Source: Candidatus Omnitrophota bacterium (GTDB lineage Bacteria > Omnitrophota > Gorgyraeia > JAHJTE01). From it: a DNA stretch of 64,000 bases. Of this stretch, positions 3,007-46,049 are shown piece by piece. The position numbers and the translations under genes are program-made. The notes under the pieces were generated by a model that was not told the origin of the DNA, made no database searches, and worked only from the letters and a program-made list of their open reading frames with translations. Location: assembly GCA_018830005.1 (NCBI GenBank), contig JAHJTE010000002.1, positions 331,809-395,808 on the forward strand, written 5' to 3'. Each line of letters starts with the position of its first letter. Within the stretch, counting starts at the first letter, position 1.

Positions 3007-3034
3007 TTTATTCCCCTCTCTTTTTCTAAATTAT

Positions 3035-11503: not shown

Positions 11504-13228
11504 TTATATCTCCTTAAGTTTGTATGAATTGACCCAATATAACTTTTTTCCAAAACCCAAAATATCCGCGGGACCAAATATTTCATCTAAAGAATATTTC
11601 TTTTCAATAAAATCTTCTATGCGGGGGGATATTGATTGGAAATCACTTAAATAATTATTACTGATTTTTAAAATTATTTTCGGATTTTCATTTTCAATTT
11701 TAGAAATTATACTATGTTCAAATGAAGTTACTATGGGCCTGAGGTCCTCTCTTTTAATAGACATCTTTACCAAGAATTCAAGTTTCTTTAAAAGGTATTC
11801 TTCTCTTACAAAGATATTATTTTGCTTAGTTAAGAAGCTTAATTGTGGATAATAGCCCATAACAACTATTTTTTCATTATCCTGGAGATTCTTTGATAGA
11901 TAAGAAAATAATGACTCATATAATTCCTTTTCATAAGCAGTGACTAGGATTCCTTGGGCTCGGACTAAATTTAACGGTTCTCGATATCTTTTTGAATTAG
12001 AGTAAGGATAAATAAAAAAGTTTAAAAAACTGATATAAAATAAAAATATCGCAATACAAATTCTTGTAATTACCGGCCTAGTAGAGTAAAAAGTCTTCAA
12101 AAAATAAAGCAAATAAACGGTAAGAATAAAAGTAAGTTGAATATTGTATGCCTTGGTCATATTATGACCCACTAGAAAACTCTCGAAAGAAATAAACACC
12201 GAAGGAATAATGATGATCAATAAAGAATTTTTGTCTCTAAGCAATTTTTCCTTAATCTCAAAGTTAACTTTATTAAATCTTGCCCTGATATAAATAAAGA
12301 TAATTGAAATAGGCACTATAAAATACAGGCAATTGATAAAGGCCTCAAATGAAGTAACCAATAATTGCTTAAACTCACCAAATGAAGATATATTTATAAG
12401 GCTGCTAATTGGAAATATGCCATTAATTTTTTTTAAAATTTCTGAAAAGGTAATTATATCAATCTTGGATGAGAGGCTAACGGATACGGCAGAATTAGGT
12501 TGAAAAAACAAAGGGTAAGCCACAGGTAAATCCTTTAGCGCAGTCTGAGAATAAAAATACAATAAATATATCAACGGTAAAATGAATACACCTATTAGAA
12601 ATATCAAATAATTATTAATTTTATTTCTAAATTCCCTTAAACCATCAAACAAAAACAAAAATAAAGATACAGCAACTAAAAAACTAACTCCTGCTAATAA
12701 CGGCTTAGTTAATAAGCAAATGGAACAAAAGATACCAGCCCAAAAAATATTATATATTTTTTTATTCGATTCCAAGTATCTACAGATCATCAATAAACAG
12801 GCAATCTCAGCCAAAACAATGAAGATATGATTAAATGTATAATATGGAACATTAAAAAATATAATTGATAGAAAAGCAGCTATGCCGGCCCAAAGACTTG
12901 GCATGATCCTTTTGGACAAAAAGAAAACAAGAGGTATGACTAATGAGGCAAAAATGATATAGCTAATTCTCAAAACAATTAAATTGACACCGAATATCTT
13001 CATGATGAACGGATAGACGAAGAAAGAAAATGGACCATATAACCATTCAAAATCACGATAGGCTAAATTGCCTTGCATAGCTAAAAGATAAGCGTTTGCA
13101 TCACGACTTTCCTCAAAATTCATACCTAAACGAAAACTTAAAACATGATGAATATAATAAATCAAGGCTACGGCTAAGATAATTAGCAAGCTTTTATACT
13201 GTTTCCAAAACTCATTCTTTTTAAACAT
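11504..13228 (-). CDS. Polytopic membrane protein (GT-C-like), paralog A of a tandem pair
   Basis: 574 aa, multi-TM, with a hydrophilic C-terminal domain. About 55% aa identity to the neighbouring 13286..14992 product across the full length. Confidence 0.5.
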   Translation of the reverse strand: MFKKNEFWKQYKSLLIILAVALIYYIHHVLSFRLGMNFEESRDANAYLLAMQGNLAYRDFEWLYGPFSFFVYPFIMKIFGVNLIVLRISYIIFASLVIPLVFFLSKRIMPSLWAGIAAFLSIIFFNVPYYTFNHIFIVLAEIACLLMICRYLESNKKIYNIFWAGIFCSICLLTKPLLAGVSFLVAVSLFLFLFDGLREFRNKINNYLIFLIGVFILPLIYLLYFYSQTALKDLPVAYPLFFQPNSAVSVSLSSKIDIITFSEILKKINGIFPISSLINISSFGEFKQLLVTSFEAFINCLYFIVPISIIFIYIRARFNKVNFEIKEKLLRDKNSLLIIIIPSVFISFESFLVGHNMTKAYNIQLTFILTVYLLYFLKTFYSTRPVITRICIAIFLFYISFLNFFIYPYSNSKRYREPLNLVRAQGILVTAYEKELYESLFSYLSKNLQDNEKIVVMGYYPQLSFLTKQNNIFVREEYLLKKLEFLVKMSIKREDLRPIVTSFEHSIISKIENENPKIILKISNNYLSDFQSISPRIEDFIEKKYSLDEIFGPADILGFGKKLYWVNSYKLKEI

Positions 13229-13285: not shown

Positions 13286-14992
13286 TCAATTTAATTTATA
13301 TGCATACACCCTAGCTTTTTCGTTTTCATTTCCAAGAATCTGTGCTGGTTCAAATTTTCGCTCTAGAAGATAATTTTCTGCTAGATAGTCTTTAATCTTG
13401 GGGGATATCATCCTGAAGTTAGGCAGATAATCTGCATTTATCGTCAAAACTATCTTGGGTTTCTGCGTTCTCATCATAGACATTATTTTATTCTCTAGCA
13501 AATTGCCGGAGAGAATAGCCCGGCCTGTCTTCCGTGCTCTCCAAAAGAGAACTTCGAGATTTGGAAAAATATAATCGTCTTTCGCAAAAATATTTTCTTG
13601 TTCGGTTAAGAAACTTAATTGAGGATAATAACCTATAACAGCAATCTTATCTTTGGCTTTAAGATTATCGGATAAGTATAACGACAAAGACTCATACATT
13701 CTTTTTTCTTGAGGTGTTACCAAAATTCCCCTGCTGCGTTCAAGATTCAATATTTTAGTGTTCTTTTTTAATCTAGAGTACGGATAACGGAAGAAAGACA
13801 CGAAACTTAAGGAAAATAAAACAATAAGTATTGCAGCAAACAAACGCTTACGCTGATGAATTCTTTTAAATAAATAGAGTAAATATACAGTCACTATAAA
13901 TGGGGTTTGAATAGTAAATGATCTATTGTAAATATGAGACATTACTAAGCTCTCTAGAGAAATAAATATTGAAAAAAGACCGAATAGTAGGAAGAATCTT
14001 TTGTTTTTTTTAATTTCTTCTCTAATTTCTGTTCTTTGATTACTAAATTTAGATCGATTATAAACAAGCAAAAGTAAAGCGCAGGTTAGAAACGGCAAAA
14101 TAACAATAAAATTATCAAATGAGGCAATTAGGACTTTTTTTAACTCTGTGAATGAAGTTAAATTTATAATCGTTTTGATTGGCAATAAGGTTGTTATTCT
14201 TTCAATGAGCCTTGGAATAATGCTCATTATCCTTGGAGCCTGATCAGCAAACAGCGATGAATCTTTAGCAAAATATGGATGAGCTACAGCAATACCTTTA
14301 AGTCTAGTTTGAAAATAGAAATACAAAGAATATATTAAAGGCAAAAAAACTGCGGCAATACTAAACATTAAAATATCTTTAAATCTTTTTCCCAGGCTAC
14401 CTAAATCCTTGTACAATAAAATAAATAAAGATATTGCAGCAAAAATAGTTATTCCAGAAACTAAAGGCTTAGTTAATAAGCAAATGGAACAGGAGATACC
14501 GGCTAAAATTAAATACAAGATTTTTCGATTTGTTTCCATATATAAACATATCATCAAAAGACAGATCATTGCCCCCAATGTAAGAAAAATATGATTATAC
14601 GTATAATACGGGACATCAAAGAATACAATTGATAAGAATGCGGCGATACCTGCCCAAAGAGGCGGCATTATTCTTCTGGCTAAAAAGTATGCAAGAGGAA
14701 TAATCAAAGAAGTAAATACAATATAGCTAACCCTTAAAACAATAAGATTAAAACCAAATATCTTCATAAGCACAGGGTAAACAAAAAACGCGAAAGGTCC
14801 ATATACCCATTGGAAATCACGGTAGGCTAAATTGCCCTGTATAGCCAAAAGATAAGCGTTTGCGTCACGGCCCTCCTCAAAATGCAATCCCAAACGAAAA
14901 CTAAAATATTGTTTCAAGTAATAGCTAGCAACCACTACTAAAATTATTAAGAAGCTTTTATTTTGTTGCCAAAACTTATATCTATAATTCAT
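13286..14992 (-). CDS. Polytopic membrane protein (GT-C-like), paralog B of a tandem pair
   Basis: 568 aa. It shares the motif block FRLG..FEE.RDANAYLLA.QGNLAYRDF.W.YGPF.FFVYP with paralog A. Confidence 0.5.
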   Translation of the reverse strand: MNYRYKFWQQNKSFLIILVVVASYYLKQYFSFRLGLHFEEGRDANAYLLAIQGNLAYRDFQWVYGPFAFFVYPVLMKIFGFNLIVLRVSYIVFTSLIIPLAYFLARRIMPPLWAGIAAFLSIVFFDVPYYTYNHIFLTLGAMICLLMICLYMETNRKILYLILAGISCSICLLTKPLVSGITIFAAISLFILLYKDLGSLGKRFKDILMFSIAAVFLPLIYSLYFYFQTRLKGIAVAHPYFAKDSSLFADQAPRIMSIIPRLIERITTLLPIKTIINLTSFTELKKVLIASFDNFIVILPFLTCALLLLVYNRSKFSNQRTEIREEIKKNKRFFLLFGLFSIFISLESLVMSHIYNRSFTIQTPFIVTVYLLYLFKRIHQRKRLFAAILIVLFSLSFVSFFRYPYSRLKKNTKILNLERSRGILVTPQEKRMYESLSLYLSDNLKAKDKIAVIGYYPQLSFLTEQENIFAKDDYIFPNLEVLFWRARKTGRAILSGNLLENKIMSMMRTQKPKIVLTINADYLPNFRMISPKIKDYLAENYLLERKFEPAQILGNENEKARVYAYKLN

Positions 14993-14997: not shown

Positions 14998-15930
14998 TTA
15001 AACATTGGAGAATTGGTTTAGTCTGATAACCTGATAACCTTTGATTAATTCCCTAATACCATCCCGAAGTGAAAAAATAGGCTTGAATCCTGTCTTTTCA
15101 ATTTTTGAGTTACTTACGATGTAGTCTCTTTTGTCCGGATCCTCCCCAATCTTAGCTTCGACAAAATAAAACTCAGGGATCTCCTTTTTGATCTGTTCAC
15201 ATAATTCCCATTTGCTTAAATTTGCATCGCTAATGCCAACATTATAAGGTTCGTCTTTCATCAATTCGAAATTATCTAAGGAATGAATAAATGCCTTTGC
15301 CACATCTCGCACATGAATATAATTTCTCTTGAAGTGTGGCTCGAAAATTATAATAAAATAGTCAGCTACGGCGCGATAAACAAAATTATTCACTAGAAGG
15401 TCAAGCCGCATTCGTGGACTAACCCCAAATGCCGTTGCCAGACGTAAAGAAATTGAATTTTTAGCATCCAACAGCGCCTTCTCTGCTTCTACCTTCAATC
15501 TTCCATAAAGAGAAATAGGCCGCAAAGGGGTATCCTCGGTGCAGAAGTTATCTTTCTGGCCTACTCCATAACCGCTATTCGTAGTGGGATAAATTACTCT
15601 TTGATTTTTACTGCGTAAATCTAATATCAAATTTAGGCCATCAACAATGACTGCTTTAGCCTCTGTTGGATTTTTCTGACAAACAGGCGCGCCCGTCAAA
15701 CAAGCCAAAGGGAAAATTACATCGACGTTCTGGAGCAGTTTCGAAATCAATTTTTTATCTCGACAATCTCCTCTAGTAATAGTCAATTTTTTATCATAGC
15801 AACAATCTAAAAGAGAGGTTTGATTATAAATAAAATTATCCAGAGCGATAACTTCGCAACCCTTCTTTAATAATTCAGAGACTAATACTGAACCAATATA
15901 ACCTGCTGCTCCAGTAACTAAAATCTTCAT
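14998..15930 (-). CDS. NAD-dependent epimerase/dehydratase (extended SDR)
   Basis: VTGAAGYIGS Rossmann motif and YGRLK catalytic motif. Confidence 0.7.
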   Translation of the reverse strand: MKILVTGAAGYIGSVLVSELLKKGCEVIALDNFIYNQTSLLDCCYDKKLTITRGDCRDKKLISKLLQNVDVIFPLACLTGAPVCQKNPTEAKAVIVDGLNLILDLRSKNQRVIYPTTNSGYGVGQKDNFCTEDTPLRPISLYGRLKVEAEKALLDAKNSISLRLATAFGVSPRMRLDLLVNNFVYRAVADYFIIIFEPHFKRNYIHVRDVAKAFIHSLDNFELMKDEPYNVGISDANLSKWELCEQIKKEIPEFYFVEAKIGEDPDKRDYIVSNSKIEKTGFKPIFSLRDGIRELIKGYQVIRLNQFSNV

Positions 15931-15947: not shown

Positions 15948-17414
15948 CTAAACCTTGTTTGTCGTCTCCTGTTCTTCTAATAATCTTCTTTTTAATTTGA
16001 ATTTTAGCATATCTTGTATATGCGCTAGGGTCTGTATGCCAAATTTATCTAAAATCATATCTTGATAGCGCTTACTAGAAAAATATTCTTCAAAGGCATC
16101 GTCTCTAAACTTAAGAATTTGAGATGCAGTCAAATACTTGGTTGGCAGAGGCTGTGTTTCAAAACTAAATTGAGAATAACCTAACCAAGAATCCGGTAGA
16201 GGTAATTTATCAGCTAATGTCTGTTCATACAGCTTTGAGCCGGGATAAGCCATGGCTACATAAAAATTTGCGTATTCGCAATTAAGCTCTTTTGCTAAAT
16301 CTAAAGTCTGGCCCAAAGACTCTAAATCATCTTCTGGCAAACCAAAGATAAAATTAGCGCCAATATGAATACCGACTGAATGTATCAAACTAGTGATGCG
16401 CTTCATCTTTTCATTGTCAAACCTTCCCTTGCTTACTGCGTCTCTTACCCTCTTACTGCCTGACTCAAAACCAATACCCAACCAATTGATTCCAGCCTGC
16501 TTCATTCTCTTAAGCATATTCTCATTAAGCGTATCTACTCTAGCATATGCCCAAATATTTAAATTATAACCCCTTTGAATTAAAGAATCACAGATCTGTA
16601 TAACGCGTTCTTCTTTTAAGGCAAACATTTCATCCATGATTTTGAAATTCTTGATTCCGTAATTTTCTACCAGATAATCAATCTCCCTAATGACTTTATC
16701 GGGATCCCTATACCTGATTGTATGCTTGCCGAAGATTGCATTTATGCAACAAAAGGAACAGTTAAAAGGACATCCTAAGCTTGTATAAATTACTCCGTAA
16801 GGACTACGCTTATCTAAATGACCAAAGCAATGCCAGTTATGTGCTCTATATTTATTCATTGCCAATAAATCCCATGCCGGCATAGACAAATCATCCGAAT
16901 CAACTAATTCAGCTCTCGGGTTAGAAAGAATTTTACAATTCTCTTCATAGAATAAACCCTTGATATCTTTCAAAGGTTTGCCAGATAATAAATCTAATAC
17001 TGTAAAAAACCCCTCTCCTTCGCAAACGAAATCTACCGATTCTTCTCTAAGAGTCTTCTCTGGTAAGGCTGAAGGATGAAGTCCAATCAGAATAGTCGAA
17101 ATATCCCTATTGTTTTTTTTGATATTATCAAGCAACTCCCTTGCCCCTACCATACTAGTTGTGGAGGCTGAAGGATTGGTTCCAGAAGCGACTATAGCCA
17201 CTAATCTCGGCCTCATTTTAACGACTGCTGACAAGACTCTTTCCGGCTCAATCTCAGCATCTATTATATCTACATTAAAACCCCTCTCTCTGATAAAGCC
17301 ACCCAAAAGCCCAGCCCAAAGAGGCGGCTCAAGACCAGAAAGGGACTTGCTTAAATTCTGGTATATCTTCTTCTGTGCTCCGGGTTTTATAACTAATAAA
17401 TCTAAGTTTTTCAT
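15948..17414 (-). CDS. Cobalamin-binding (class B) radical SAM enzyme
   Basis: B12-binding-like N-terminal domain followed by SLGCPFNCSFC (CxxxCxxC). The track ORF extends to 17456, but the ATG at 17414 makes a 4-nt ATGA overlap with the stop of the upstream TPP-enzyme gene, so 17414 is the more likely start. Confidence 0.7.
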   Translation of the reverse strand: MKNLDLLVIKPGAQKKIYQNLSKSLSGLEPPLWAGLLGGFIRERGFNVDIIDAEIEPERVLSAVVKMRPRLVAIVASGTNPSASTTSMVGARELLDNIKKNNRDISTILIGLHPSALPEKTLREESVDFVCEGEGFFTVLDLLSGKPLKDIKGLFYEENCKILSNPRAELVDSDDLSMPAWDLLAMNKYRAHNWHCFGHLDKRSPYGVIYTSLGCPFNCSFCCINAIFGKHTIRYRDPDKVIREIDYLVENYGIKNFKIMDEMFALKEERVIQICDSLIQRGYNLNIWAYARVDTLNENMLKRMKQAGINWLGIGFESGSKRVRDAVSKGRFDNEKMKRITSLIHSVGIHIGANFIFGLPEDDLESLGQTLDLAKELNCEYANFYVAMAYPGSKLYEQTLADKLPLPDSWLGYSQFSFETQPLPTKYLTASQILKFRDDAFEEYFSSKRYQDMILDKFGIQTLAHIQDMLKFKLKRRLLEEQETTNKV

Positions 17415-19201
17415 TTTATCGGACCAGGATAAACAGGATTCTCCCATCCCTTCCAAGGCTTAATAATCATATTTCTTTTAAATTCTTCTCTCGGTAAAAA
17501 TGGATATTGATCTTCTATTGGTGTACCCCAACCAAGCTTTGGTTGATAATCATAGAAACCAACCATATTAACATCACAAATTACTGACTCCCGGCTTTTA
17601 AGGGCATCTTTTAGTTTTCTTTTCAATTCTTTGTGATCCTTAATTCTTAACGTCTTTAAGCCATAGGCCTTAGCAACTTTTACGTAATCAGGAAAAGACA
17701 CGCCATGTTCGGAATCAACGCCTGCATATTCTGATTTAAAATGCGTGTCACGATAAGCCTTAGTTATCCCAAATGCCTGATTATTAAAGATAAAGACCTT
17801 AACCGGAAGCTTGTAATGCTTTAACGTCTGAAGTTCTTGTATATTAAAATGCATACCACCGTCTCCGAGTATACAATTCACTTTCTTGCCAGTAGCAACA
17901 GCTGCTCCTATAGCAGCCGGAAGTGCATAACCCAAAGATGAATTTCCGTTGTTACTAAATACTCTTTGATTCGCCTTAGGCTGGAAGGCCTGAGAAGTTA
18001 CAACGCAATTACCTCCTGCCTCATGTACTAAAACATCACCCGAATTCATTAGCTCAGAAAGAACCTTAACAAAGATATATGGATTAACGCTCCCCTTTTG
18101 TTTGACGTATTCTTTCCTGACTACAGGATATCTATTCTCCCATTCCTTGACCCGAGCCAACCAAGTAGGATCAATATTCGCTCCAAATTTAGGAGATTTT
18201 CTAAAGGCTTTCGTAAATTCATTAATAAATACCTTCGCGTCGCAATAAATATTCAAATCGCCCTTTGTTTGTTGAAATTTCATTTCGTATTTATCAATAT
18301 CTACGATTATCTTCCTTGCAGCTCGAGCAAAGGTATGCTGCATACCTCCGGTAATTCTTCCGGAGATTCTGCTTCCTATAGCTAAAAGAAAATCGCAATT
18401 CTGGATACCGAAATTTCTGCCGTCGCCGCCGAATGTACCCACTTTTCCGCCAAAGAATTTAGGGTCGTAATGATCGATCATATTCCAAGTTACAAAAAAC
18501 GGCACACTCTTTAATTTGCGAGCTAAAATCTTTGCCTGTTCGCTGGCACCGGCCAACCATACCCCGCCGCCTAAAAGAATAGCTGGCCGCTTTGCTTGCC
18601 TTAGATAATTTAAAACACGAACAATCTTATTAATCTCCCACCCCTCTGAACTAGGGGGTAAATAACCTTTCAATTTTGAAGAAACCTTTGCTCTTTGTAT
18701 ATCCATAGGGACATCTAACAGTACTGGACCTGGCCTACCACTTGTTGCTAAAAAGTAAGCTTTCTCCAATTCATATCGAATATCAGCTGCCTTCCTAATA
18801 ACAGTAGCATATTTGGTAATCGGTTTAACCATTGACACAATATCACTTTCCTGAAAACCCCATTGCCTAACTAGATTATTAGGTTTTATAAAACGGGAAT
18901 TAACCTGACCTGTAAAATAGAGCGCTGGACAGGAATCGTAAAAACTAGCTGCAATGCCATTTAATAGATTCTGGCCTCCTGGACCGGAGGTGGCAATCAT
19001 TGCTGACATCTTGCGCGTGGCCTTAAAATAGCCATCAACCATGAATGCGCCTGCTTGTTCATGCAACGGACAATAATACTTGAGCTTCTTGTTTCTGGCA
19101 ACCGACACGACAAGACTTGCCGCAGCAGACCCCTCAATAAAAAACACATCACGAATACCTTTCTTAACTAAAAAATCAGCAATAAATTCCGAAACTATCA
19201 T
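17411..19201 (-). CDS. Thiamine-diphosphate-dependent enzyme, acetolactate-synthase large-subunit-like (YerE-like)
   Basis: 596 aa with the three-domain ALS/POX architecture: TPP Pyr domain (GPGGQNL), a central domain, and a TPP-binding C-terminal domain (GDGGMHFNIQEL). Confidence 0.8.
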   Translation of the reverse strand: MIVSEFIADFLVKKGIRDVFFIEGSAAASLVVSVARNKKLKYYCPLHEQAGAFMVDGYFKATRKMSAMIATSGPGGQNLLNGIAASFYDSCPALYFTGQVNSRFIKPNNLVRQWGFQESDIVSMVKPITKYATVIRKAADIRYELEKAYFLATSGRPGPVLLDVPMDIQRAKVSSKLKGYLPPSSEGWEINKIVRVLNYLRQAKRPAILLGGGVWLAGASEQAKILARKLKSVPFFVTWNMIDHYDPKFFGGKVGTFGGDGRNFGIQNCDFLLAIGSRISGRITGGMQHTFARAARKIIVDIDKYEMKFQQTKGDLNIYCDAKVFINEFTKAFRKSPKFGANIDPTWLARVKEWENRYPVVRKEYVKQKGSVNPYIFVKVLSELMNSGDVLVHEAGGNCVVTSQAFQPKANQRVFSNNGNSSLGYALPAAIGAAVATGKKVNCILGDGGMHFNIQELQTLKHYKLPVKVFIFNNQAFGITKAYRDTHFKSEYAGVDSEHGVSFPDYVKVAKAYGLKTLRIKDHKELKRKLKDALKSRESVICDVNMVGFYDYQPKLGWGTPIEDQYPFLPREEFKRNMIIKPWKGWENPVYPGPIK

Positions 19202-19295
19202 TCTTGTACCTCTCCTAGCTCCTATCTTATTAAAACGTCCTTCCTCAATTGTCCCAAGAGCTTACTTTGAAGGCTTAATTTATTTCCTAGATCTA

Positions 19296-20780
19296 TCATA
19301 ACTGCAATAAATGATGAATAGGTAATTTTCTGTTTCTATTTAAGCTTGCATAGCGTTGCGTGATTATATCCTCTGCTTTTTTTCGAAATTCAATTAATTC
19401 TTCGATATCCAAATTATAAGGTTTGATCCATGGCTTATCGCTAGCTTGATGAAAATTCTCGGCATATAAAATATCCTGATCAGGAACTAATAACAACTTA
19501 TTCCTAATAACTTCATCATATAATCTAGAGCCAGGAAGCGGGACGGCGGTATGGATTGATATGTTATCTAAATAAAGTTTATTTATCATCTCGTAAGTTT
19601 CCCTAAGAGTATCCGAGGTTTCTTGAGGTAGGCCAATAATAAAAAAAGCCCTTACAAAAATATCCTTTTCCTTGCGCATTAGTTCAAATACCTCAAATAT
19701 TTTTTCCCTCGGCAATTTTTTTCCCATAACTTTATTTCTAATGTAATCAGAACCGCTCTCTACAGCAAAGGATATCCTTAAAAGGCCCATAGCTTTTAGC
19801 GCCTCTAGAATATCCCTATCAAAAAACTTTATAGAGATACCGTTTGGTGTATCAACATAGATCTTGAGATTCTTTTTCCTAATCTTACTAGCGAGTTCAA
19901 GTACTCTACTTTTATCCATGCTAAAGTTATCATCTATTATTGAAAAATAATTAATACCATATTCATTATATAGGTATTCTATTTCTTTTAGGCAATTCTC
20001 AGCTGATCTGTATCTTATTTCTTTTCCATGAAGAAGATGCATAGCACAAAAATTACATCCCATAGGACAGCTACGACTTGAAAGGAAGGGGAATCTGTAT
20101 TTAAGGCTATATCCTTTGGGGTTGTGCCAATGCCTTTCCCACTTCTCTGACTCAATCTCATAATCCTGCAAATTTAAGAGTTCCCAGGCTGGATAGGGTA
20201 AAATGTCTAAATCATTAATGAAGTTTCTTTTAGGGTTGACTCTTATCCGGCCATCTCTGTAACATATTCCATCTATGTCTGATAGTGAACCACCATTGAA
20301 AATACAATTTAACAACTGAAGGAAAGACTCCTCCCCTTCACCAATAATAATAAAATCAACACAATCAAAGCGTTCAAGAATTTCCTTATAAAATACGGTC
20401 GGCTGGATACCACCTAGGACAACCGGAAGAGAACTATCTATCTTTTTTAAAACGGAACTTATGAAGATAGTGGCTGGAAATTTACCCGAAAATAAACAAC
20501 TAATACCAACAAGATCGGGTTTGTAATCATTGTAGGTGTCAGTAATTGTTTGCTCGACAAAAGCATCGAGATCATCTTTAAAAGATAAATTATGTCTTTT
20601 CAGAAGAGCTGGAATATCTAGATAAAATATATTATAACGGTTCTTCTTTAGAGTAGCTGCCAAAGAAAGCAAGCCTACCGAAGGATAAGGCTCCTCTCTC
20701 AAATTGCTAACCATTGAATCATTCGAGATATTACTGGATCTAACGTGAGAATTAATTAATAAAATCTTCTTACTATTCAT
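19296..20780 (-). CDS. Cobalamin-binding (class B) radical SAM enzyme
   Basis: N-terminal B12-binding-like domain (LVGISCLF…VVLGGIQPT), then SRSCPMGCNFC (CxxxCxxC). Confidence 0.75.
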   Translation of the reverse strand: MNSKKILLINSHVRSSNISNDSMVSNLREEPYPSVGLLSLAATLKKNRYNIFYLDIPALLKRHNLSFKDDLDAFVEQTITDTYNDYKPDLVGISCLFSGKFPATIFISSVLKKIDSSLPVVLGGIQPTVFYKEILERFDCVDFIIIGEGEESFLQLLNCIFNGGSLSDIDGICYRDGRIRVNPKRNFINDLDILPYPAWELLNLQDYEIESEKWERHWHNPKGYSLKYRFPFLSSRSCPMGCNFCAMHLLHGKEIRYRSAENCLKEIEYLYNEYGINYFSIIDDNFSMDKSRVLELASKIRKKNLKIYVDTPNGISIKFFDRDILEALKAMGLLRISFAVESGSDYIRNKVMGKKLPREKIFEVFELMRKEKDIFVRAFFIIGLPQETSDTLRETYEMINKLYLDNISIHTAVPLPGSRLYDEVIRNKLLLVPDQDILYAENFHQASDKPWIKPYNLDIEELIEFRKKAEDIITQRYASLNRNRKLPIHHLLQL

Positions 20781-21688
20781 CTTGACCTTTTATAGCTGGG
20801 GTCTTTTATCAATTGCTTTGCAGCTAGAGCAATTTGTTCAGCGGAAGGAGTGGAATTTCGAGACTCAAAATTAACGCCAATAGATCTATCCTCTAATCCT
20901 AATGCCTTTAGGGGCTTCCCGGTCTCCAACATCAACTGGTAGGCTATAGATTCAGATGCGCCACAAATTTCAAATCCGGCATCGATTACCAGCCCCGCCC
21001 TGCTATTACTTAGTGCTGCTATGATATGTTCCTTCTTAAACGGCTTTAACCATGCAACATGAGCAATATTACAACTAATGCCGTCCTTCTTTAAAATAGC
21101 TGCAGCCTCTTCTACTTCAAAACGAGCTGCTGAAATTGGAATTAATGTTATATCCGCGTCATTATCTGAATTTGTAAACTCTTCGGTGTTCTCAAAACTT
21201 GCTCTATGTTCACTAACGAACATGGGATCATCGTGCTCCATAAAATCATTCCAAGCCTGCTCATATTCAGTTGGTGTCATAGGAGAACAAACCCTCATAC
21301 CTGGCATATGCATAAATACGCTATGCAATACACCCGAATGGACACAACCCGCATCTTCCTGGGCTAATGCCCTTACAAATATAGGCATTAAAATTCCAAA
21401 AATATCTTTTGCCTTAGCAGCGTAATTTACTAACGTACTGCTATTAAGCCACATAAAATCTTGAAAACGAATTACAATAATAGGCCGTCTTCCTGTAATA
21501 CCTGCGCCGCAGGCAATACCCATATTTGATACATCTGACATAGGCAATTCAACCAGATTCTTAGAATTAGGTACTGTTTCGTTAATCCAGCCAACAGCTC
21601 TAATACATTGACCAAGTAGAAGGCCGTTATTTTCCTCAAGGTGCCTGCGAGTAATTTCTTTTATTGTCCCTGCAACTGTTTTCGCCAT
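20777..21688 (-). CDS. TPP-dependent dehydrogenase E1 beta-like / transketolase pyrimidine-binding and C-terminal domain protein
   Basis: 303 aa with Pyr-domain and transketolase-C-like segments; 4-bp overlap with the downstream rSAM gene and a 28-bp overlap with the E1 alpha-like gene. Confidence 0.6.
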   Translation of the reverse strand: MAKTVAGTIKEITRRHLEENNGLLLGQCIRAVGWINETVPNSKNLVELPMSDVSNMGIACGAGITGRRPIIVIRFQDFMWLNSSTLVNYAAKAKDIFGILMPIFVRALAQEDAGCVHSGVLHSVFMHMPGMRVCSPMTPTEYEQAWNDFMEHDDPMFVSEHRASFENTEEFTNSDNDADITLIPISAARFEVEEAAAILKKDGISCNIAHVAWLKPFKKEHIIAALSNSRAGLVIDAGFEICGASESIAYQLMLETGKPLKALGLEDRSIGVNFESRNSTPSAEQIALAAKQLIKDPSYKRSR

Positions 21689-22488
21689 AACTCTCCTACA
21701 TATCTTTTCATCTCATTCTCAATTAGTTTTGCATTAGAGATCTTCTTTTTTACCTCAGACAATCTATCTTGCTTAGGCGATCCATCATTACCTATACCAA
21801 CATGCCAAAGATGTCTACAGGTCTTTATATTAATAAAGGCGGGGAGACATTTAGTTAATTTCTTAATGCTATCAAAAATTATCTCAGGATCATCTACGAT
21901 TGATTCACTGACTAGCCCCATCGCCTTTGTTACGTCTGGAATCTTCCAATTTCTTCTTACCTCAATAGGCGTCAAAATAGACAAGTTGTTATCTTCACAA
22001 ACATACAAAATTGGCAATTTATTCTTTTCCGCAAAACCATAAGAGGATAATACATAATCCTCTTCGGCTGCTGCATCTCCGAAATAAACAACAGTAGGCT
22101 TTCCAGAGGCTAGGCAATAACCTGTAGCTAAAGGGATGTTTTCCCCTATAAGGCCATTATGGCTATACATAGGAATATTCAGATCTTTGATGCAAGGCGA
22201 TCCCCCCCTACCTTCACAACAGCCCGATCTTCTTCCTAATAACTCGTCAATGAGACGCTCGATATCGCCTCCGTACGACAAATAGGTTGAATGACAACGA
22301 TGTTGAGTAAAAACTGCGTAACCTTCTGTAAGAGCAGACATAGTTGCAGAAATTGCTTCTTGGCCTACTGACAAATAAACTACTCCGGGAACAAGGTTCT
22401 TTTTTACAGCTTCAACTACCTGAAACTCAAAATAACGAATAAGGCACATCTTCCTAAATATCTCTTCTAAATTTAGCTTTTTTTCCAT
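21661..22488 (-). CDS. TPP-dependent dehydrogenase E1 alpha-like subunit
   Basis: MCLIRYFEFQVVEAV…GVVYLSVGQEA resembles the pyruvate/acetoin dehydrogenase E1-alpha N-terminus; a GDAAAEE TPP-binding region. Confidence 0.65.
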   Translation of the reverse strand: MEKKLNLEEIFRKMCLIRYFEFQVVEAVKKNLVPGVVYLSVGQEAISATMSALTEGYAVFTQHRCHSTYLSYGGDIERLIDELLGRRSGCCEGRGGSPCIKDLNIPMYSHNGLIGENIPLATGYCLASGKPTVVYFGDAAAEEDYVLSSYGFAEKNKLPILYVCEDNNLSILTPIEVRRNWKIPDVTKAMGLVSESIVDDPEIIFDSIKKLTKCLPAFINIKTCRHLWHVGIGNDGSPKQDRLSEVKKKISNAKLIENEMKRYVGELWRKQLQGQ

Positions 22489-23627
22489 TTCTTATATAGG
22501 ATTAAAATATCACCATCTGTTAAAGATCTATTTTTTGCGGCATTATTTTTGCAAAACTTTAGGAATCCTCTCAGCTCTTCCTCTTCTAAATCAAGCTTTA
22601 GCTTTTTTAGTTTTTGCTCTAAGGCGCGCCTACCAGATAATTTTCCAATAACGAGTTGATAACCATCCAGGCCTATGTCTTGTGGATTTAAAAGCTGATA
22701 TGTTCGATTATATTTAATCATGCCATCTTGATGAATCCCTGATTCATGCAGGAATGCATTTGCCCCTACGATTGCCTTATTGGATGCAATTTTTATCCCC
22801 GATAATTCTTCAACTAACTTACTTGTATTTATAATTTCTTTCGTATTTATATAGCTTATATCTTCTTTAAATACATCTTCCCTGGCCTTTAGCGCCATAA
22901 TAACTTCTTCGCAAGCGGCATTTCCAACACGCTCTCCTATCCCATTAATGGTAACCTCTACTTGTCTGGCGCCTGCCTTTATCCCTGCCAAGGTATTTGC
23001 TACCGCCAATCCTAAATCATTGTGACAATGGGTGGAGACAACGATATCTTCTGGTAATTCCTTCGTGATGCTACCAATTAAAAAAGCATATTCTTCAGGA
23101 GTCGCATAACCAACTGTATCGGGCAGCTCAATTGTCAATGCACCTGCTTGCACGCAGGACTTACATACTTGTATAAGATAATCCAATTCGCTGCGAGTTG
23201 AATCCTCCGCAGCAAACTCGACATCTTGCCTAAAGCTCTTTGCATATTGAACCATTTCCACGCAAAGATCCAAAGCCTGCTGAGGAGAGATATTAAATTT
23301 ATGTTTCAAATGTATATCAGAAGTGCCCATTACAACTTGAATACGCCCTTTTTTTGCCTCGCCTAGAGCTTCTGCTGCCACCTCTATATCCTTTTTATGC
23401 GCCCTACACATGGTACTGATGATAATTGAATTTCCGAATTCCTTCGCGACAAGATTTACGCCTTTAGCATCTTGCTCAGAAGCTATAGGAAATCCTGCCT
23501 CAATAATAGGAAGTCCTAGCTTCACCAACTGCTCAGCGATCCTCAGCTTTTCTTCTGGTAAAAAATTTACGCCTGCTGCTTGCTCGCCGTCTCTTAAAGT
23601 AATATCATTTATTAACAAGTCTTTCAT
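22473..23627 (-). CDS. 2-isopropylmalate / homocitrate / citramalate synthase family (DRE-TIM metallolyase), short form without the LeuA regulatory domain
   Basis: LRDGEQ motif and the [16 protein letters not shown] signature; 384 aa. Confidence 0.75.
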
Positions 23628-24813
23628 TTCTCTTCACCACCTTCATATTCTTTGTCTCCATTAATACCTTCTTCATCTTTTCACAAGCCTCTTCAATAAT
23701 TTCAGGCCGCCTCATATAACAAAGTCTTATATAACCCTCCCCATATTCGCCAAAACAAGTTCCAGGAAGCAACACAACATTGCACTTCTCTAAAGCAAAA
23801 TCAGCAAACTGAGTACTGCTCATGCCTGTGCCTTTTATATTTGCAAAAACATAACAGGCGCCTTCCGGAAGACAACAAGAAACTCCCGGAATCTCATTTA
23901 ACTTCTTTACTATTAAATCCCTTAAGGATTTGTACTGCCTAATCCTATCCTCAATAACACTCTGGTCACCCTTTAAGGCACTTACACCCCCATATTGTAT
24001 AAAAGGAGGTGTACAAGAATAAATCGTTTGAAAAAGGCTGCCCATTTTTTCTATGACCTCTTTTGGACCTATTGCATAACCCAGGCGCCATCCAGGCATT
24101 GAATAGTTTTTGGCAAATCCATTTAGGATAATCGTACGCTCTTGACATTTATCAAGAGAGCTAGGGGAAAAATGCTCACCGTCGTAAATAATCTTAGAAT
24201 AAATTTCATCGCTTAAAAGATAGGTATCGTTATCTTTGGCCACTTTAGCAATAGCCTCCATCTCTTCCTTAGTCAGCACTGCGCCTGTGGGATTCTGGGG
24301 TGAATTTACAATTATCAGACGAGTCTTATCGGTAATCCGCTTTTCTATTGCATCGGCTTGTATATGGAATTTACTCTCTTCTTTAATAGGCACGCCAACC
24401 TTCTTTATGCCAGTATAATTCGTCACAGCCAGATAGGTGGAAAAGCCTGGGTCTGGATAAAGCACCTCTTCTCCCGGATTTGCCACGCAGCGCATTACAA
24501 AATCTATGATGCCATTTGCCGGCATAACCACTACTTGATCCAACTCTGGTTTAAAACCCAACGTCTCATGGGCATATTCACAGATGGCTTCCTTTAACTC
24601 AGGGATGCCTGCTGAATCAACATAATGAGTACAGCCATTATCTAAGGCCTCTTTAGTTGCATCTATTATGTGCTGATGAGCCCTAAAATCTGAATCGCCA
24701 ATCTCAAAATGAAAAATTTTCTTTCCAGCCTTCTCCATCTTCCTTATTTTAGCCATAAGCTTAAACATTGGCTGACCGATTAGTCCTTGCGTAATCTTAG
24801 CTAGTTTTTTCAT
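23605..24813 (-). CDS. Class I/II PLP aminotransferase (aspartate/aromatic aminotransferase-like)
   Basis: 402 aa; NSPQNPTG motif, SFAKNY (PLP-Lys region), and a GYIR C-terminal region. Confidence 0.75.
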   Translation of the reverse strand: MKKLAKITQGLIGQPMFKLMAKIRKMEKAGKKIFHFEIGDSDFRAHQHIIDATKEALDNGCTHYVDSAGIPELKEAICEYAHETLGFKPELDQVVVMPANGIIDFVMRCVANPGEEVLYPDPGFSTYLAVTNYTGIKKVGVPIKEESKFHIQADAIEKRITDKTRLIIVNSPQNPTGAVLTKEEMEAIAKVAKDNDTYLLSDEIYSKIIYDGEHFSPSSLDKCQERTIILNGFAKNYSMPGWRLGYAIGPKEVIEKMGSLFQTIYSCTPPFIQYGGVSALKGDQSVIEDRIRQYKSLRDLIVKKLNEIPGVSCCLPEGACYVFANIKGTGMSSTQFADFALEKCNVVLLPGTCFGEYGEGYIRLCYMRRPEIIEEACEKMKKVLMETKNMKVVKRNERLVNK

Positions 24814-24858: not shown

Positions 24859-25569
24859 TTAATGCCAAATGAATACTTCTCTTAAAACTTGAAAAAGATA
24901 AGCTGCTCCCCATTTAAAAACCTGTAATTTTGCTTCTCCGCCGATTCTTTTTGGTTCATCACCGGGGATCTCAGCAACTTTAAGTTTCCTTTTTGCTGCC
25001 CGAACTGACAATATCGGCTCCCAGCCGATTTTAGTCCTAAATAATTTCTCGGGTGTAGAATAAGTAATATCTTTATCTAAATCCAACTCTCTGACTAAAC
25101 TCTTTTTATATATTCGAAAGATATTCATAACATCTGTGTATTTACCGCCGTGTAATAAGTTCATGAGAGTAGTGAACATCCAATTGCCAAAGGCCGTAAC
25201 TGGAGTATCATCATAACTTTTAGCTCCTTTGGCGTAACGAGACGCAATAACCATGTCATAGCCTTCTTTCATCTTCTCGATTAATTTAGGAATAAGTTCA
25301 GGGATACAATTCCCATCCGGACTAAAGGTAATAAGTACCTCACTATTGACAGCTTCAAGGGCATCTATAAATGCATTACGCACGCCTGAACCTAGGTGCT
25401 TTTCAAATATTAAAGTCCAGCCATTCTCTTTAATGTAATCAATTGTCCCATCTGTAGAATAGCCATCAACAAAAACAATCTCATCGACCCACTCTCTTTT
25501 TATTCTGGGCATAATTTGTTTTAGACCATCAATTTCGTTAAGCGTAGGAATAAGTAAAGCTACTTTCAT
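24859..25569 (-). CDS. GT2 glycosyltransferase, polyprenyl-phosphate sugar synthase (DPM1/ArnC-like)
   Basis: LIPTLNE…VDGYSTDGT and DxD-type motifs; 236 aa soluble GT2. Confidence 0.7.
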   Translation of the reverse strand: MKVALLIPTLNEIDGLKQIMPRIKREWVDEIVFVDGYSTDGTIDYIKENGWTLIFEKHLGSGVRNAFIDALEAVNSEVLITFSPDGNCIPELIPKLIEKMKEGYDMVIASRYAKGAKSYDDTPVTAFGNWMFTTLMNLLHGGKYTDVMNIFRIYKKSLVRELDLDKDITYSTPEKLFRTKIGWEPILSVRAAKRKLKVAEIPGDEPKRIGGEAKLQVFKWGAAYLFQVLREVFIWH

Positions 25570-25596: not shown

Positions 25597-26124
25597 TTAA
25601 TCGAACTCACTTCTTTTCCCTAAAATAATGATTTTTAATGCTATTATAATTTTTGAAATCCATAAAACAGTCGGCTTTCCAATATAATATTTACCATCTT
25701 TAAATATTATCTGACCACTGTTAATTAATCTATTCGTTCTCTTTTGGAATATCTCCTTGGCGCTGTATCGATTTAGAAGCTCTCCTAACTTGAGTCCGTC
25801 TCCTGCCTCATATAATTCCCTTAATATTCTTATACGACGTGCTGTCTCGCCTAAATTTATAAAATGAAAATAACAATAACCCAGACAACCGTAGCCTATC
25901 AAATTTATAACAAAAATATCACTAAGGCCTTCTAAGGAAACCTCTGGCCTAAAGGAGATAAAAGAGGTGAAAAATAAGAGATACAAAATGCCAATAACAA
26001 ATCCCAAATAAATTGAGTTCAATAATCCTATTTGTTTAAAATATCTAAAACTAAGTAGTTGTACTAAGACATTTATAATAAGGCAAATAACTGGCATAAA
26101 AACTAGAAAATAATCAAAAGTCAT
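25597..26124 (-). CDS. Small membrane protein with a C-terminal soluble domain (paralog 1)
   Basis: 175 aa; about 3 N-terminal TM helices; the C-terminal domain (…DGKYYIGKPT…) is similar to the neighbouring 26133..26645 product. Confidence 0.4.
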   Translation of the reverse strand: MTFDYFLVFMPVICLIINVLVQLLSFRYFKQIGLLNSIYLGFVIGILYLLFFTSFISFRPEVSLEGLSDIFVINLIGYGCLGYCYFHFINLGETARRIRILRELYEAGDGLKLGELLNRYSAKEIFQKRTNRLINSGQIIFKDGKYYIGKPTVLWISKIIIALKIIILGKRSEFD

Positions 26125-26132
26125 CTTATGAT

Positions 26133-26645
26133 CTATCCACCTTTTTCTAATCTGAGTAACTTACGATAAAAAACAAACAGCTTTGCTACTAAGGCTCCTG
26201 TTGCTCTTAACTTGTATTTGCCATTGCCAACGTAGATCATCTTCGCGGTAAGAAGATCATTCAATCTCGGCAATACTAAAACATCGTCATTCATATTTTG
26301 CTGTAACATATTTTCATCCAAGCCATTAGGACCTGCCTCATGGACTTTCATAACCATGACCAGAGAGGGACTATCTACCTCTAATCCTGAATAGGTCACA
26401 ATATAGGCTAATGTCAAAGAAATAAAAAGAATGCAAAGTTTTAGATATCCTAGAGGTAAGACTCTAGCGAAAATATCAGCTTGATTTGAAGATGTCCTCA
26501 AAAACAAAATCCCAACTAGCAAGATAGATAGAAAAATCAAAAACAATACATTAGTTTGATTTTTTGGGATACGAATCTTCCAAATTGCAAGATGAATAAA
26601 AAATGCTATTACAAATAGAACTATGCCATATAATAAAACGCTCAT
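26133..26645 (-). CDS. Small membrane protein with a C-terminal soluble domain (paralog 2)
   Basis: 170 aa; same architecture as the neighbouring 25597..26124 product (…EAGPNGLDENML…NGKYKLRATG…). Confidence 0.4.
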   Translation of the reverse strand: MSVLLYGIVLFVIAFFIHLAIWKIRIPKNQTNVLFLIFLSILLVGILFLRTSSNQADIFARVLPLGYLKLCILFISLTLAYIVTYSGLEVDSPSLVMVMKVHEAGPNGLDENMLQQNMNDDVLVLPRLNDLLTAKMIYVGNGKYKLRATGALVAKLFVFYRKLLRLEKGG

Positions 26646-26649
26646 AAAA

Positions 26650-27369
26650 TCAAAACTTCCCTTTAGTTATCGTTGCCTTATTAGCTTCTTTCCAGCTCAT
26701 ATAGAAATCATTTAATTTTTTAAACTCAAAGTAAGTCTGCAATGATGCTCTTGCCTCTGATACGACAAATCCAGAATACCCAGCCCTCCTAATCAAATCC
26801 AACATATATAAACTATGATCTGGCGATTGATGCAAGTGTGTATGCCATAAATCGCTACCAAAGACATAACCGGTCAAATGAATATGGGAGGCATCTTTTA
26901 TAACCGGTAAAAATTCCTCTTCATATACACCGCAACATTCTAACTGTAAATGCTCCACATCCAGACATCTGCCCAACCCAAATCGCCTCATAAATTTCAA
27001 AGGTTCATGCACGCTATGGGTATTTTCAACGCAGAGCTTAGTCTTAATGGGTGTAAAAATCTTTGTTATATCCAGCCATTCATCCTCCCAATAAATATTA
27101 TGAAAGACAACGATTTTTGCGCCGATTGCTTTCACTAACTCTGATAATTTATCTGGAGTTCCTAAGTCATGCGGTGCATGTACAGCATAGCTAAATGAAA
27201 ATCTCCTGCACAAAGCTATGAGGACATCTAGATTCCCTAGCATCTGTCCGTTTAGATAAAGTTCAACTCCACAGATGCCGGCCTTTTCAATATCGGATAA
27301 GATTCTCAGCTCTGGGGCAGACTTTACTGCCAAAACAATATCATTAATTTTATTCATAACTCTAGACAA
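26650..27369 (-). CDS. Sugar phosphate isomerase/epimerase (xylose-isomerase-like TIM barrel)
   Basis: 239 aa; the pattern of His/Glu/Asp metal ligands fits AP-endonuclease-2 / xylose isomerase-like barrels. Moderate confidence from composition and context. Confidence 0.5.
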   Translation of the reverse strand: MSRVMNKINDIVLAVKSAPELRILSDIEKAGICGVELYLNGQMLGNLDVLIALCRRFSFSYAVHAPHDLGTPDKLSELVKAIGAKIVVFHNIYWEDEWLDITKIFTPIKTKLCVENTHSVHEPLKFMRRFGLGRCLDVEHLQLECCGVYEEEFLPVIKDASHIHLTGYVFGSDLWHTHLHQSPDHSLYMLDLIRRAGYSGFVVSEARASLQTYFEFKKLNDFYMSWKEANKATITKGKF

Positions 27370-29270: not shown

Positions 29271-29283
29271 GATTCAATCTCCG

Positions 29284-31899: not shown

Positions 31900-31919
31900 A
31901 TTTGTTTTAAAGAAAACTT

Positions 31920-33537: not shown

Positions 33538-33549
33538 TTTATTTTCCTC

Positions 33550-38467: not shown

Positions 38468-38471
38468 TCTC

Positions 38472-39482: not shown

Positions 39483-39498
39483 ATTTGCCCTCTTAAGA

Positions 39499-40062: not shown

Positions 40063-40065
40063 ACC

Positions 40066-41334: not shown

Positions 41335-41348
41335 TAGTTCTGGCCCTC

Positions 41349-46039: not shown

Positions 46040-46049
46040 TGTTTATACT

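Follow-up and report, generated by a model that had tools for sequence, protein, structure and literature searches.

The stretch of DNA analysed here, 64,000 nucleotides of the Candidatus Omnitrophota contig JAHJTE010000002.1 (assembly GCA_018830005.1) and hereafter called the window, carries at 15948-24813 a module of seven genes in which two non-homologous thiamine diphosphate (ThDP) enzymes stand together with two cobalamin-binding radical S-adenosylmethionine (SAM) enzymes. Comparison with related loci suggests that two alternative forms of a widespread uncharacterised cassette have been fused here, a cassette predicted to make a branched cell-surface sugar. All coordinates are positions within the window. 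Of the 60 open reading frames (ORFs) of at least 150 amino acids, 57 lie on the minus strand and each of the three on the plus strand overlaps a minus-strand ORF; the gene layout is a single long array. The module, the features named below between 1212 and 35085 and the Wood-Ljungdahl genes are all on the minus strand. The GC skew was also found to be below zero in every 2-kb bin of the window. The Rfam scan of the window gave no family at gathering score, and promoter-like and terminator-like sites were not more frequent than in shuffled sequence.

The first gene of the module encodes AT1, a class-I, AspAT/AroAT-like aminotransferase dependent on pyridoxal phosphate (PLP) (23605-24813; Aminotran_1_2, 1.8e-66). 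It is followed by a homologue of 2-isopropylmalate synthase (IPMS) from the IPMS/NifV family, called LeuA-like here (22473-23627; HMGL-like, 3.5e-84, with HCS_D2), a short E1α-like ThDP subunit of 275 aa (21661-22488; E1_dh, 4.1e-19), an E1β-like subunit (20777-21688; Transket_pyr and Transketolase_C), the cobalamin-binding radical SAM enzyme rSAM2 (19296-20780; B12-binding, 4.8e-17, and Radical_SAM, 1.3e-20), a YerE-like ThDP carboligase of the acetolactate synthase (ALS) superfamily (17411-19201; TPP_enzyme_N/M/C, up to 1.8e-35) and a second cobalamin-binding radical SAM enzyme, rSAM1 (15948-17414; B12-binding, 5.6e-18, and Radical_SAM, 1.9e-19). An initial annotation of the window had listed these seven ORFs, and the ORF calls together with strong Pfam matches, far above chance, agreed with it. 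It had also described all of them as coupled by overlaps of 4-28 bp, which is correct for five junctions, but rSAM2 and the YerE-like gene are separated by a spacer of 94 nt (19202-19295), in which nothing but a ribosome-binding site was found.

The product of 17411-19201 has the three-domain fold of ALS-type ThDP enzymes and the cofactor motif GDGG...NN. Its best PDB match was JanthE (8RPH, 336 bits), a characterised YerE-like enzyme (PMC12188165), whereas a true acetolactate synthase (ALS II) reached 253 bits. The score against the ilvB model TIGR00118 was 358 bits with a cut-off of 538, so the protein is not an ilvB equivalog, and the YerE-like character proposed for it at the outset is upheld. 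Homologues with 45-79% identity were found in sugar cassettes.

The E1α and E1β genes overlap and encode a heteromeric pair, in which E1α carries the ThDP-binding domain and its motif GDA...EDNN, and E1β the pyrimidine-binding and C-terminal domains. The E1α subunit is short: only its residues 10-176 align with human pyruvate dehydrogenase (PDH) E1α, the E1_dh match is limited to profile positions 2-174 of 300, and the PDH E1α model of NCBIfam gave 123 bits against a cut-off of 394. It belongs to a large family, with lengths of about 270-304 aa among the best 120 matches and members in many phyla. An identical E1α protein was also seen at NCBI in a Candidatus Omnitrophica metagenome-assembled genome (GCA_043815545.1, contig JBDRIX010000009.1). 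In the 80 loci with such an E1α that were compared, E1β follows directly in 78, and most have the pair embedded among sugar genes. No lipoyl, E2 or E3 domain appeared in the Pfam tables of the scanned window ORFs or of three of these loci (L003, L005, L006; loci are denoted by L and a number). In line with the initial annotation, the pair belongs to a short divergent family, and the inspected loci have it among nucleotide-sugar genes. It has been reviewed that the branching of keto-sugars is known or proposed for three ThDP superfamilies, DC, αKADH2 and TK, with YerE-like enzymes in lipopolysaccharide (LPS), αKADH2 E1α/β enzymes for natural products of actinomycetes and, as a proposal only, split transketolases for such products as well (PMC12247030). 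The operon of the window holds members of all three, including a split transketolase at 30176-31899.

Both ThDP enzymes are accompanied by a radical SAM enzyme, and the two proteins share 29% identity. The B12-binding domain was found in them at 65 and 62 bits (cut-off 32) and the Radical_SAM domain at 71 and 75 bits, and the CxxxCxxC motif reads CPFNCSFC in rSAM1 and CPMGCNFC in rSAM2. The claim that a cobalamin-binding enzyme flanks the ALS-like gene on each side is therefore confirmed, and the absence of this domain, which had been named as a ground for giving up the sugar-branching idea, was not observed. On the other hand, the three cobalamin-dependent enzymes counted at first are reduced to two, as just two window ORFs contain a B12-binding domain. 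The candidates for a third, at 28179-29270 and 31920-33008, turned out to be radical SAM enzymes of the SPASM type.

The distribution of these genes was compared over about 160 related loci, among them a set of 80 E1α loci from a scan of GTDB species genomes and a set of 53 YerE-like loci of at least 8 kb from metagenomes; the window proteins were mapped onto both sets. The E1α loci come from Planctomycetota, Omnitrophota, bacteria of the candidate phyla radiation (CPR), DPANN archaea, Methanosarcinales, Brocadia and Nitrospira, and further from Elusimicrobia, Deltaproteobacteria, Bdellovibrionales and others. A homologue of the Cj1427-like dehydrogenase that adjoins the module was found in 46 of the 80; 43 have the GHMP kinase, 38 the nucleotidyltransferase and 64 any cobalamin-binding radical SAM enzyme. 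The YerE-like family is as large as the short E1α family, and its 53 loci show a similar company (Cj1427-like dehydrogenase in 33, GHMP kinase in 34, class-I aminotransferase in 36 and cobalamin-binding radical SAM enzyme in 45). An AT1-type gene adjoins the ThDP enzyme in both cassette types, and rSAM1 orthologues with 46-76% identity also occur in both, the number of cobalamin-binding radical SAM enzymes ranging from 1 to 3 per locus. The LeuA-like gene with a close copy of AT1 directly upstream is confined to the nearest subset (10 of the 80 E1α loci) and is absent from all 53 YerE-like loci. None of the 80 E1α loci has a YerE-like gene and none of the 53 YerE-like loci has E1α/β, which agreed with the first impression that finding both systems together is highly unusual.

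In Nitrospira-type pairs of loci (L053, L058 and L064 against L116, L122 and L127), the DegT, short-chain dehydrogenase/reductase (SDR) and GHMP kinase proteins are 77-90% identical, the Fcl-like reductase about 60% and the nucleotidyltransferase about 45%, while the ThDP enzyme is non-homologous, the aminotransferase about 30% identical and the conserved radical SAM enzyme 55%. These identities suggest that the sugar core is constant and that the module of aminotransferase, ThDP enzyme and cobalamin-binding radical SAM enzyme is exchangeable. Both ThDP types stand side by side in the window. Locus L088 has the order GT2a-AT-YerE-like-rSAM1-SDR-GT-C-kinase-NTP transferase-DAO-DegT-Fcl-like, where GT stands for glycosyltransferase; its GT2a, YerE-like, rSAM1, SDR, kinase and DegT proteins are 76-81% identical to those of the window and the other shared ones 47-62%, but it lacks the LeuA-E1α-E1β-rSAM2 block. 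The AT1-LeuA-E1α-E1β genes are found at 69-76% identity in Planctomycetota loci. Comparison with L088 and L003 would place the seam between the E1-type and the YerE-type block at 19202-19295, the sole junction of the module without overlap. Taken together, the synteny with L088 without the E1 block, the E1 block of Planctomycetota and this junction argue for a hybrid origin of the module. The initial annotation had placed both ThDP systems in one sugar pathway; their presence in one operon stands, but they look like alternative, interchangeable modules of a cassette that have become fused here. The trpC gene (indole-3-glycerol-phosphate synthase) lies upstream of the cassette in L088 (345-1109), as it does in the window. 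In the window, the glycan operon starts right after trpC/trpD/trpG, aroA, prmC, prfA, rho, coaE and polA (37715-48581), which may mean that a variable island, the glycan region, occupies a chromosomal site that is itself conserved.

Directly downstream of the module lies the gene of an NAD-dependent nucleotide-sugar C4-dehydrogenase of the SDR family (14998-15930, 310 aa), similar to Cj1427 of Campylobacter jejuni by its PDB matches 6VO6/6VO8; the alignment with 6VO6 (E = 1e-116) is gapless over 308 aa with 55.5% identity. Cj1427 oxidises GDP-D-glycero-α-D-manno-heptose at C4 with 2-oxoglutarate as co-substrate, and together with a PLP-dependent C3-dehydratase it gives GDP-3-deoxy-4-keto-heptose (PMC10680097). 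The window encodes a possible partner, a DegT-family 3-dehydratase of the ColD/E1 type dependent on pyridoxamine phosphate (PMP) (8526-9728), which has CDP-6-deoxy-4-hexulose 3-dehydrase and ColD as best PDB matches and shows His in place of the Schiff-base PLP lysine within a stretch of 14 residues. These genes for a deoxy-4-keto-sugar share the window with the YerE-like gene, and the majority of related loci also have the dehydrogenase. YerE and ErwE have been reported to branch 3-deoxy-4-keto acceptor sugars (PMC9306805). It suggests that the acceptor of the ThDP enzymes is probably a 3-deoxy-4-keto sugar derived from GDP-heptose.

Other genes of the sugar core were assigned by homology. 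A GHMP sugar kinase (10496-11500; GHMP_kinases_N/C) is nearest to HddA and then to fucokinase, and is 52-90% conserved across the cassettes. The sugar-1-phosphate nucleotidyltransferase (9789-10499; NTP_transferase) resembles HddC (146 bits) and mannose-1-phosphate guanylyltransferase (145 bits), and the epimerase/reductase at 7540-8511 resembles GDP-L-fucose synthase (NF047922, 414 bits with a cut-off of 500; E. coli GDP-fucose synthetase, 341 bits). Upstream of the module, a GmhA-like sedoheptulose-7-phosphate isomerase (32977-33537; SIS_2; gmhA, 105 bits) is likely the source of the heptose skeleton, and several other loci carry homologues of it within the cassette (e.g. L017, L018, L024, L051, L096 and L144).

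The genes for transfer of the product agree with the surface-glycan setting proposed initially, as sugar-nucleotide genes, polyprenyl-phosphate glycosyltransferases and GT-C transferases were all found around the module. GT2a (24859-25569; Glycos_transf_2), with NCBIfam matches to AglJ, Dol-P-hexose transferase, PpgS and ArnC-like families, has orthologues with 72-79% identity at the cassette edge in L003, L008, L010 and L088, and it is one of two enzymes, GT2a and GT2b, that resemble polyprenyl-phosphate glycosyltransferases. Two membrane glycosyltransferases of the GT-C type lie in tandem with 49% mutual identity, PMT_2/ArnT-like paralogue b (13286-14992; PMT_2 and PMT; 10 predicted transmembrane segments) and PMT_2-like paralogue a (11504-13228; PMT_2; 12 segments), whereas L088 has only one. 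The duplication of the GT-C gene accompanies the presence of two ThDP modules. Two GT-C paralogues and two GT2 enzymes would fit two lipid-linked sugar donors. A polytopic membrane protein of 782 aa (5208-7556; 12 predicted transmembrane segments) with homologues in L010, L042 and L088 matched no family in the Pfam and NCBIfam scans; it is possibly a further glycosyltransferase or a polymerase.

The two remaining enzymes of the module, AT1 and the LeuA-like protein, more probably make a 2-oxoacid donor than act on the sugar. The best PDB matches of AT1 were the aromatic and aspartate aminotransferases of Pyrococcus (1DJU and 1GD9), and K235, R243, N174, D202, Y205 and the α-carboxylate-binding R363 were invariant in 58 cassette homologues. 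The LeuA-like protein (384 aa), which we propose to condense acetyl-CoA with a 2-oxoacid at an altered specificity, has no LeuA_dimer, that is, the C-terminal leucine-binding regulatory domain is absent. It scored 497 bits against NF002086 (cut-off 532), and its best PDB match was the catalytic domain of IPMS from N. meningitidis (3RMJ, 349 bits), followed by a methylthioalkylmalate (MAM) synthase (6E1J). The metal and 2-oxoacid ligands are kept (R12, D13, the Thr of PDTVGY, and HCH). All 11 cassette copies share EFAAED and ELPDTVGY, in which the pocket has changed from Asn to Glu and from Ser-Cys to Ala-Ala. It was the retention of the α-carboxylate-binding residues by both enzymes that favoured the donor role, and it makes the amino-acid-like side chain on the sugar, which the initial annotation had derived from this pair, less likely. 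There is a precedent in the erwiniose cluster, where ErwI and ErwJ make a 4-hydroxy-2-oxoacid donor for ErwE, an enzyme that rejects pyruvate (PMC9306805). This precedent and the free-acid type of AT1 and the LeuA-like enzyme together argue for donor tailoring, since ThDP carboligases likewise draw their donors from such acids.

Based on these data, we suggest that the module is part of a hybrid cassette with a heptose-type core, ThDP branching, donor supply, radical tailoring and transfer by a lipid carrier, and we give this explanation as a whole a probability of about 60%. A heptose formed via GmhA would receive its phosphate from the GHMP kinase, and the nucleotidyltransferase would then activate it, probably to a GDP-sugar. 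Oxidation at C4 by the Cj1427-like dehydrogenase and removal of the 3-hydroxyl by the ColD-type enzyme would then give a 3-deoxy-4-keto sugar, an acceptor of the kind used by YerE and ErwE. A ThDP enzyme would decarboxylate a 2-oxoacid and add the acyl anion to the C4 ketone, which leads to a tertiary alcohol with an acyl branch; there are two non-homologous candidates for this step, E1α/β (20777-22488) and the YerE-like enzyme, which replace each other in other organisms. Less certainly, AT1 would convert an amino acid to the 2-oxoacid, and the LeuA-like enzyme would start its elongation by one carbon, with housekeeping LeuCD and LeuB completing it to a donor other than pyruvate. After each ThDP enzyme its own cobalamin-binding radical SAM enzyme would modify unactivated carbons, most likely by C-methylation. 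GT2a may load the finished sugar onto polyprenyl phosphate, and the two GT-C paralogues may transfer it, possibly as two related sugars, to the surface glycan outside the membrane.

A more specific form of this proposal is speculative, and we consider it unlikely in full detail: a heptose-derived surface sugar branched at C4 by a long acyl or aminoalkyl group, whose donor comes from dedicated elongation by the aminotransferase and the IPMS-type enzyme, and which is then repeatedly C-methylated or contracted in its ring by an HpnJ-like reaction, the hybrid giving two such sugars or one that is doubly modified. If this were true, sugar branching by E1α/β enzymes would be common in the envelopes of uncultured bacteria and DPANN archaea and not a speciality of actinomycete antibiotics.

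Several points weigh against the hybrid-cassette explanation. Both heptose and GDP are assigned by homology, with the kinase scoring 146 bits against HddA with a cut-off of 600 and the nucleotidyltransferase 146 bits against HddC with a cut-off of 300. The assignment of the dehydrogenase presumes that 6VO6 is Cj1427, the GDP-heptose C4-dehydrogenase of C. jejuni. The cobalamin-binding radical SAM enzymes fit no characterised subfamily, and the conserved one, rSAM1, is nearest to HpnJ, which is presumably a ring-contracting enzyme and not a methylase. An IPMS-type enzyme would give a 2-alkylmalate and not a 2-oxoacid, and the elongation would require LeuCD and LeuB in trans. Moreover, characterised αKADH2 enzymes prefer pyruvate (PMC12247030); if this preference holds for E1α/β of the window, a dedicated donor pathway is unnecessary. 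In kibdelomycin, the acetyl branch set by an E1α/β enzyme is transaminated (PMC12247030), and by analogy AT1 might act after the branching. No clean pattern was seen when the presence of the aminotransferase was compared with the absence of extra SDR reductases in the E1α loci.

In an alternative, near to the idea of the initial annotation, the seven enzymes act successively on one nucleotide-sugar: one or both ThDP enzymes would add acetyl branches from pyruvate, the aminotransferase would turn the ketone of a branch into a 1-aminoethyl group, the IPMS-type enzyme would use acetyl-CoA to place a carboxymethyl group on a ketone of the sugar, and the radical SAM enzymes would add C-methyl groups. 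It is a tentative possibility to which we give limited credit. The kibdelomycin and pyruvate data (PMC12247030) favour it, the aminotransferase stands directly beside the ThDP enzyme in both cassette types, and an α-hydroxy-ketone could presumably chelate the metal as a 2-oxoacid does. However, the α-carboxylate Arg of AT1 is kept in 58 out of 58 homologues and its solved relatives are transaminases of free amino acids, and in the LeuA-like enzyme the Arg and Thr for binding the 2-oxoacid carboxylate are retained. A designed pathway with two branches is also opposed by the distribution, as the two ThDP types co-occur in none of the 133 other loci.

Another alternative, which is compatible with the hybrid cassette, concerns the cobalamin-binding radical SAM enzymes alone. 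They might not methylate but catalyse a ring contraction or rearrangement like HpnJ or OxsB, or a dehydration like AprD4, on the sugar. The best NCBIfam match of rSAM1 was HpnJ (186 bits) followed by BchE, and the only solved relatives found were AprD4 and one unnamed radical SAM enzyme. However, every match lies far under its cut-off (578 bits for HpnJ), also the best match of rSAM2, a P-methyltransferase family (162 bits, cut-off 575). The scores against subfamilies of C-methyltransferases were likewise far too low for membership: 73 bits against 650 for HpnR, 34 and 62 against 700 for KedN5, and 35 against 500 for the TsrM type. Most characterised class-B radical SAM enzymes are methyltransferases, and one to three copies per locus would fit repeated methylation. 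We therefore regard a non-methylating role as improbable and C-methylation as plausible.

It is quite improbable that no sugar carbon is branched at all, and that the LeuA-like enzyme, aminotransferase, ThDP enzymes and cobalamin-binding radical SAM enzymes make a free methylated hydroxy- or amino acid that is attached to an amino sugar as N-acyl group or ester. The enzymes involved can all use small 2-oxoacids, and three small unassigned ORFs (25597-27369) adjoin the module. Unusual methylated hydroxy-oxoprolyl N-acyl groups have reportedly been seen in O-antigens. However, no ligase, ATP-grasp protein or acyltransferase was found in the module by Pfam and NCBIfam, the ThDP enzymes are tied to genes for 3-deoxy-4-keto-sugars across about 130 loci, and the one DegT protein that the window has in its cassette is not an aminotransferase but a dehydratase.

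That housekeeping ilvB, pdhAB/acoAB, leuA and aspC have come into a glycan locus by chance was rejected as very improbable. The LeuA-like protein comes near its leuA cut-off and the ALS-like protein matches ilvB models at 1e-107. However, all seven proteins score under the NCBIfam equivalog cut-offs, the LeuA-like protein lacks its regulatory domain, E1α is both shortened and divergent, and the genes overlap sugar genes and have orthologues among nucleotide-sugar genes in the related loci inspected. Partner genes (the ALS small subunit, ilvC/D, leuBCD and E2/E3) were absent from the annotated window ORFs and from the tables of four related loci. The homology searches that the initial annotation had proposed in this respect thus did not show ordinary ilvB, pdh and leuA genes with ilv/leu neighbours. 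A phosphonate decoration (a ThDP enzyme like phosphonopyruvate decarboxylase, an FrbC-like homocitrate synthase, a Fom3/PhpK-like cobalamin-binding radical SAM enzyme and a 2-aminoethylphosphonate transaminase), whose enzyme classes the module recalls and which the P-methyltransferase match of rSAM2 would suit, is hardly tenable and was rejected, as no phosphoenolpyruvate mutase domain was found in the scanned ORFs, which account for the greater part of the window, or in seven related loci by their Pfam tables.

Other parts of the window were also characterised. A second unusual sugar module at 28179-35085 comprises the split transketolase (N-terminal part, 31084-31899; C-terminal part, 30176-31087), an RmlD-like reductase, the two radical SAM/SPASM enzymes (28179-29270 and 31920-33008), GmhA and an HldE-like protein. 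In the latter, the cytidylyltransferase domain precedes the PfkB kinase domain, and we assume the reverse order for HldE of E. coli. In L037, L102 and L146, genes for split transketolases adjoin genes of the YerE-like or E1 type, and a role in branching the keto-sugars of miharamycin and amipurimycin has been proposed for such enzymes but not proven. A further sugar block lies downstream (1212-5186) with a PseB/FlaA1-like 4,6-dehydratase (4206-5186), a DegT aminotransferase (3035-4213), an N-acetyl sugar amidotransferase of the WbuX family (1861-3006; above the NCBIfam cut-off) and a SAM methyltransferase (1212-1883), and its gene content suggests an amino sugar of the acetamidino type. Wood-Ljungdahl genes were found at 49516-60156, encoding the β subunit of acetyl-CoA synthase/carbon monoxide dehydrogenase (CODH), a prismane/CODH-family protein and formate-tetrahydrofolate ligase. 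They indicate an anaerobic user of corrinoids, which is consistent with the use of B12-dependent radical SAM enzymes. A soluble protein of 239 aa (26650-27369) has a single weak match, CbiR (34 bits, cut-off 105), a cobamide-remodelling phosphodiesterase; it is adjoined by two small membrane proteins (25597-26645), which have no homologues in any related locus.

These findings suggest that the YerE-like type known from LPS and the E1α/β type known from actinomycete antibiotics are interchangeable in a widespread cell-surface sugar pathway. This pathway ranges over Nitrospira, anammox bacteria, Omnitrophota, Planctomycetota, CPR bacteria and DPANN archaea, and has a predicted GDP-heptose-type core and nearly always a cobalamin-binding radical SAM enzyme. 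It points to a new family of higher sugars, branched and probably C-methylated, in the envelopes of mostly uncultured microbes of environmental importance. The cassettes would supply new ThDP carboligases and class-B radical SAM enzymes with defined candidate substrates for biocatalysis, and in them one enzyme seems to have been replaced in nature by a non-homologous one, which is directly testable.

Among known systems, the yersiniose A pathway (YerE/YerF) and the enzymes JanthE and PpYerE are similar in that an ALS-superfamily ThDP gene stands beside an E1/ColD-type 3-dehydratase and SDR reductases. However, the acceptor predicted here derives from GDP-heptose through a Cj1427-type enzyme and not from CDP-6-deoxyglucose, and the window adds cobalamin-binding radical SAM enzymes and a class-I aminotransferase (PMC9306805, PMC12247030). 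Erwiniose, caryophyllose and gastriose (ErwE with ErwI/ErwJ, MMAR_2332 and MyGE) share with our proposal the synthesis of a special 2-oxoacid donor by enzymes of the cluster, and ErwI is homologous to the aldolase BphI (PMC9306805). The candidate donor enzymes of the window differ, being a Claisen condensing enzyme of the IPMS type and a transaminase instead of a pyruvate aldolase and an aldehyde dehydrogenase. BphI and the LeuA-like enzyme presumably share one superfamily, DRE-TIM/HMGL-like. By analogy, the combination of an aminotransferase with an IPMS that lacks the regulatory domain and has an altered pocket resembles MAM synthase and branched-chain aminotransferase in the 2-oxoacid elongation of glucosinolates, but here it stands in a bacterial surface-sugar context, and no dedicated isomerase or dehydrogenase is found in the cluster.

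The E1α/β pair resembles AviB1/B2, KbDH-α/β and the aldgamycin and paulomycin systems in its domains and context, as a two-subunit E1 ThDP enzyme without E2/E3 among nucleotide-sugar genes. In these actinomycete systems the branch's ketone subsequently undergoes reduction, methylation, oxidation or transamination (PMC12247030, PMC4753412); none of these enzymes has a solved structure (PMC12247030). In contrast, the pair described here lies in a surface-glycan operon, has a short E1α (about 275 aa) and is coupled to a LeuA-like gene and cobalamin-binding radical SAM enzymes, and its family is found in Omnitrophota, Planctomycetota, Nitrospira, Brocadia, CPR and DPANN and not in antibiotic clusters. 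The radical SAM enzymes themselves are like GenK, Fom3 and TokK in having an N-terminal B12-binding domain, a radical SAM core with CxxxCxxC and a sugar-tailoring context, but unlike these they stay under every subfamily cut-off, the nearest families being HpnJ, BchE and the P-methyltransferase family.

The capsular heptose pathway of C. jejuni, with GmhA, HddA, HddC, Cj1427, the HS:5 C3-dehydratase and C4-reductases, has counterparts in the window in a Cj1427 homologue, a PLP/PMP 3-dehydratase, Fcl-like reductases, a GHMP kinase, a nucleotidyltransferase and GmhA. However, the 4-keto intermediates undergo only epimerisation and reduction in C. jejuni, and steps of ThDP branching, cobalamin-binding radical SAM enzymes or an aminotransferase are not described there. 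The claim that the module matches no described pathway held in the literature searched, which comprised papers outside subscription: no description of a gene set with ThDP, cobalamin-binding radical SAM and Cj1427-type genes was found, nor did searches on YerE/AviB1, on Cj1427, on S-layer glycans of anammox bacteria and on branched sugars with cobalamin radical SAM enzymes reveal a match. Preprints on anammox glycoproteomics and SugarBase mention GDP-heptose but not a branched heptose, and the '232' sugar in them is, by calculation, more simply explained as a dimethyl-HexNAc. Taken together, the enzyme families and the type of reaction were already known, while the predicted acceptor, the coupling to cobalamin-binding radical SAM enzymes and an aminotransferase, the wide distribution among uncultured microbes, the interchangeability of the ThDP enzymes and the hybrid are newly described here.

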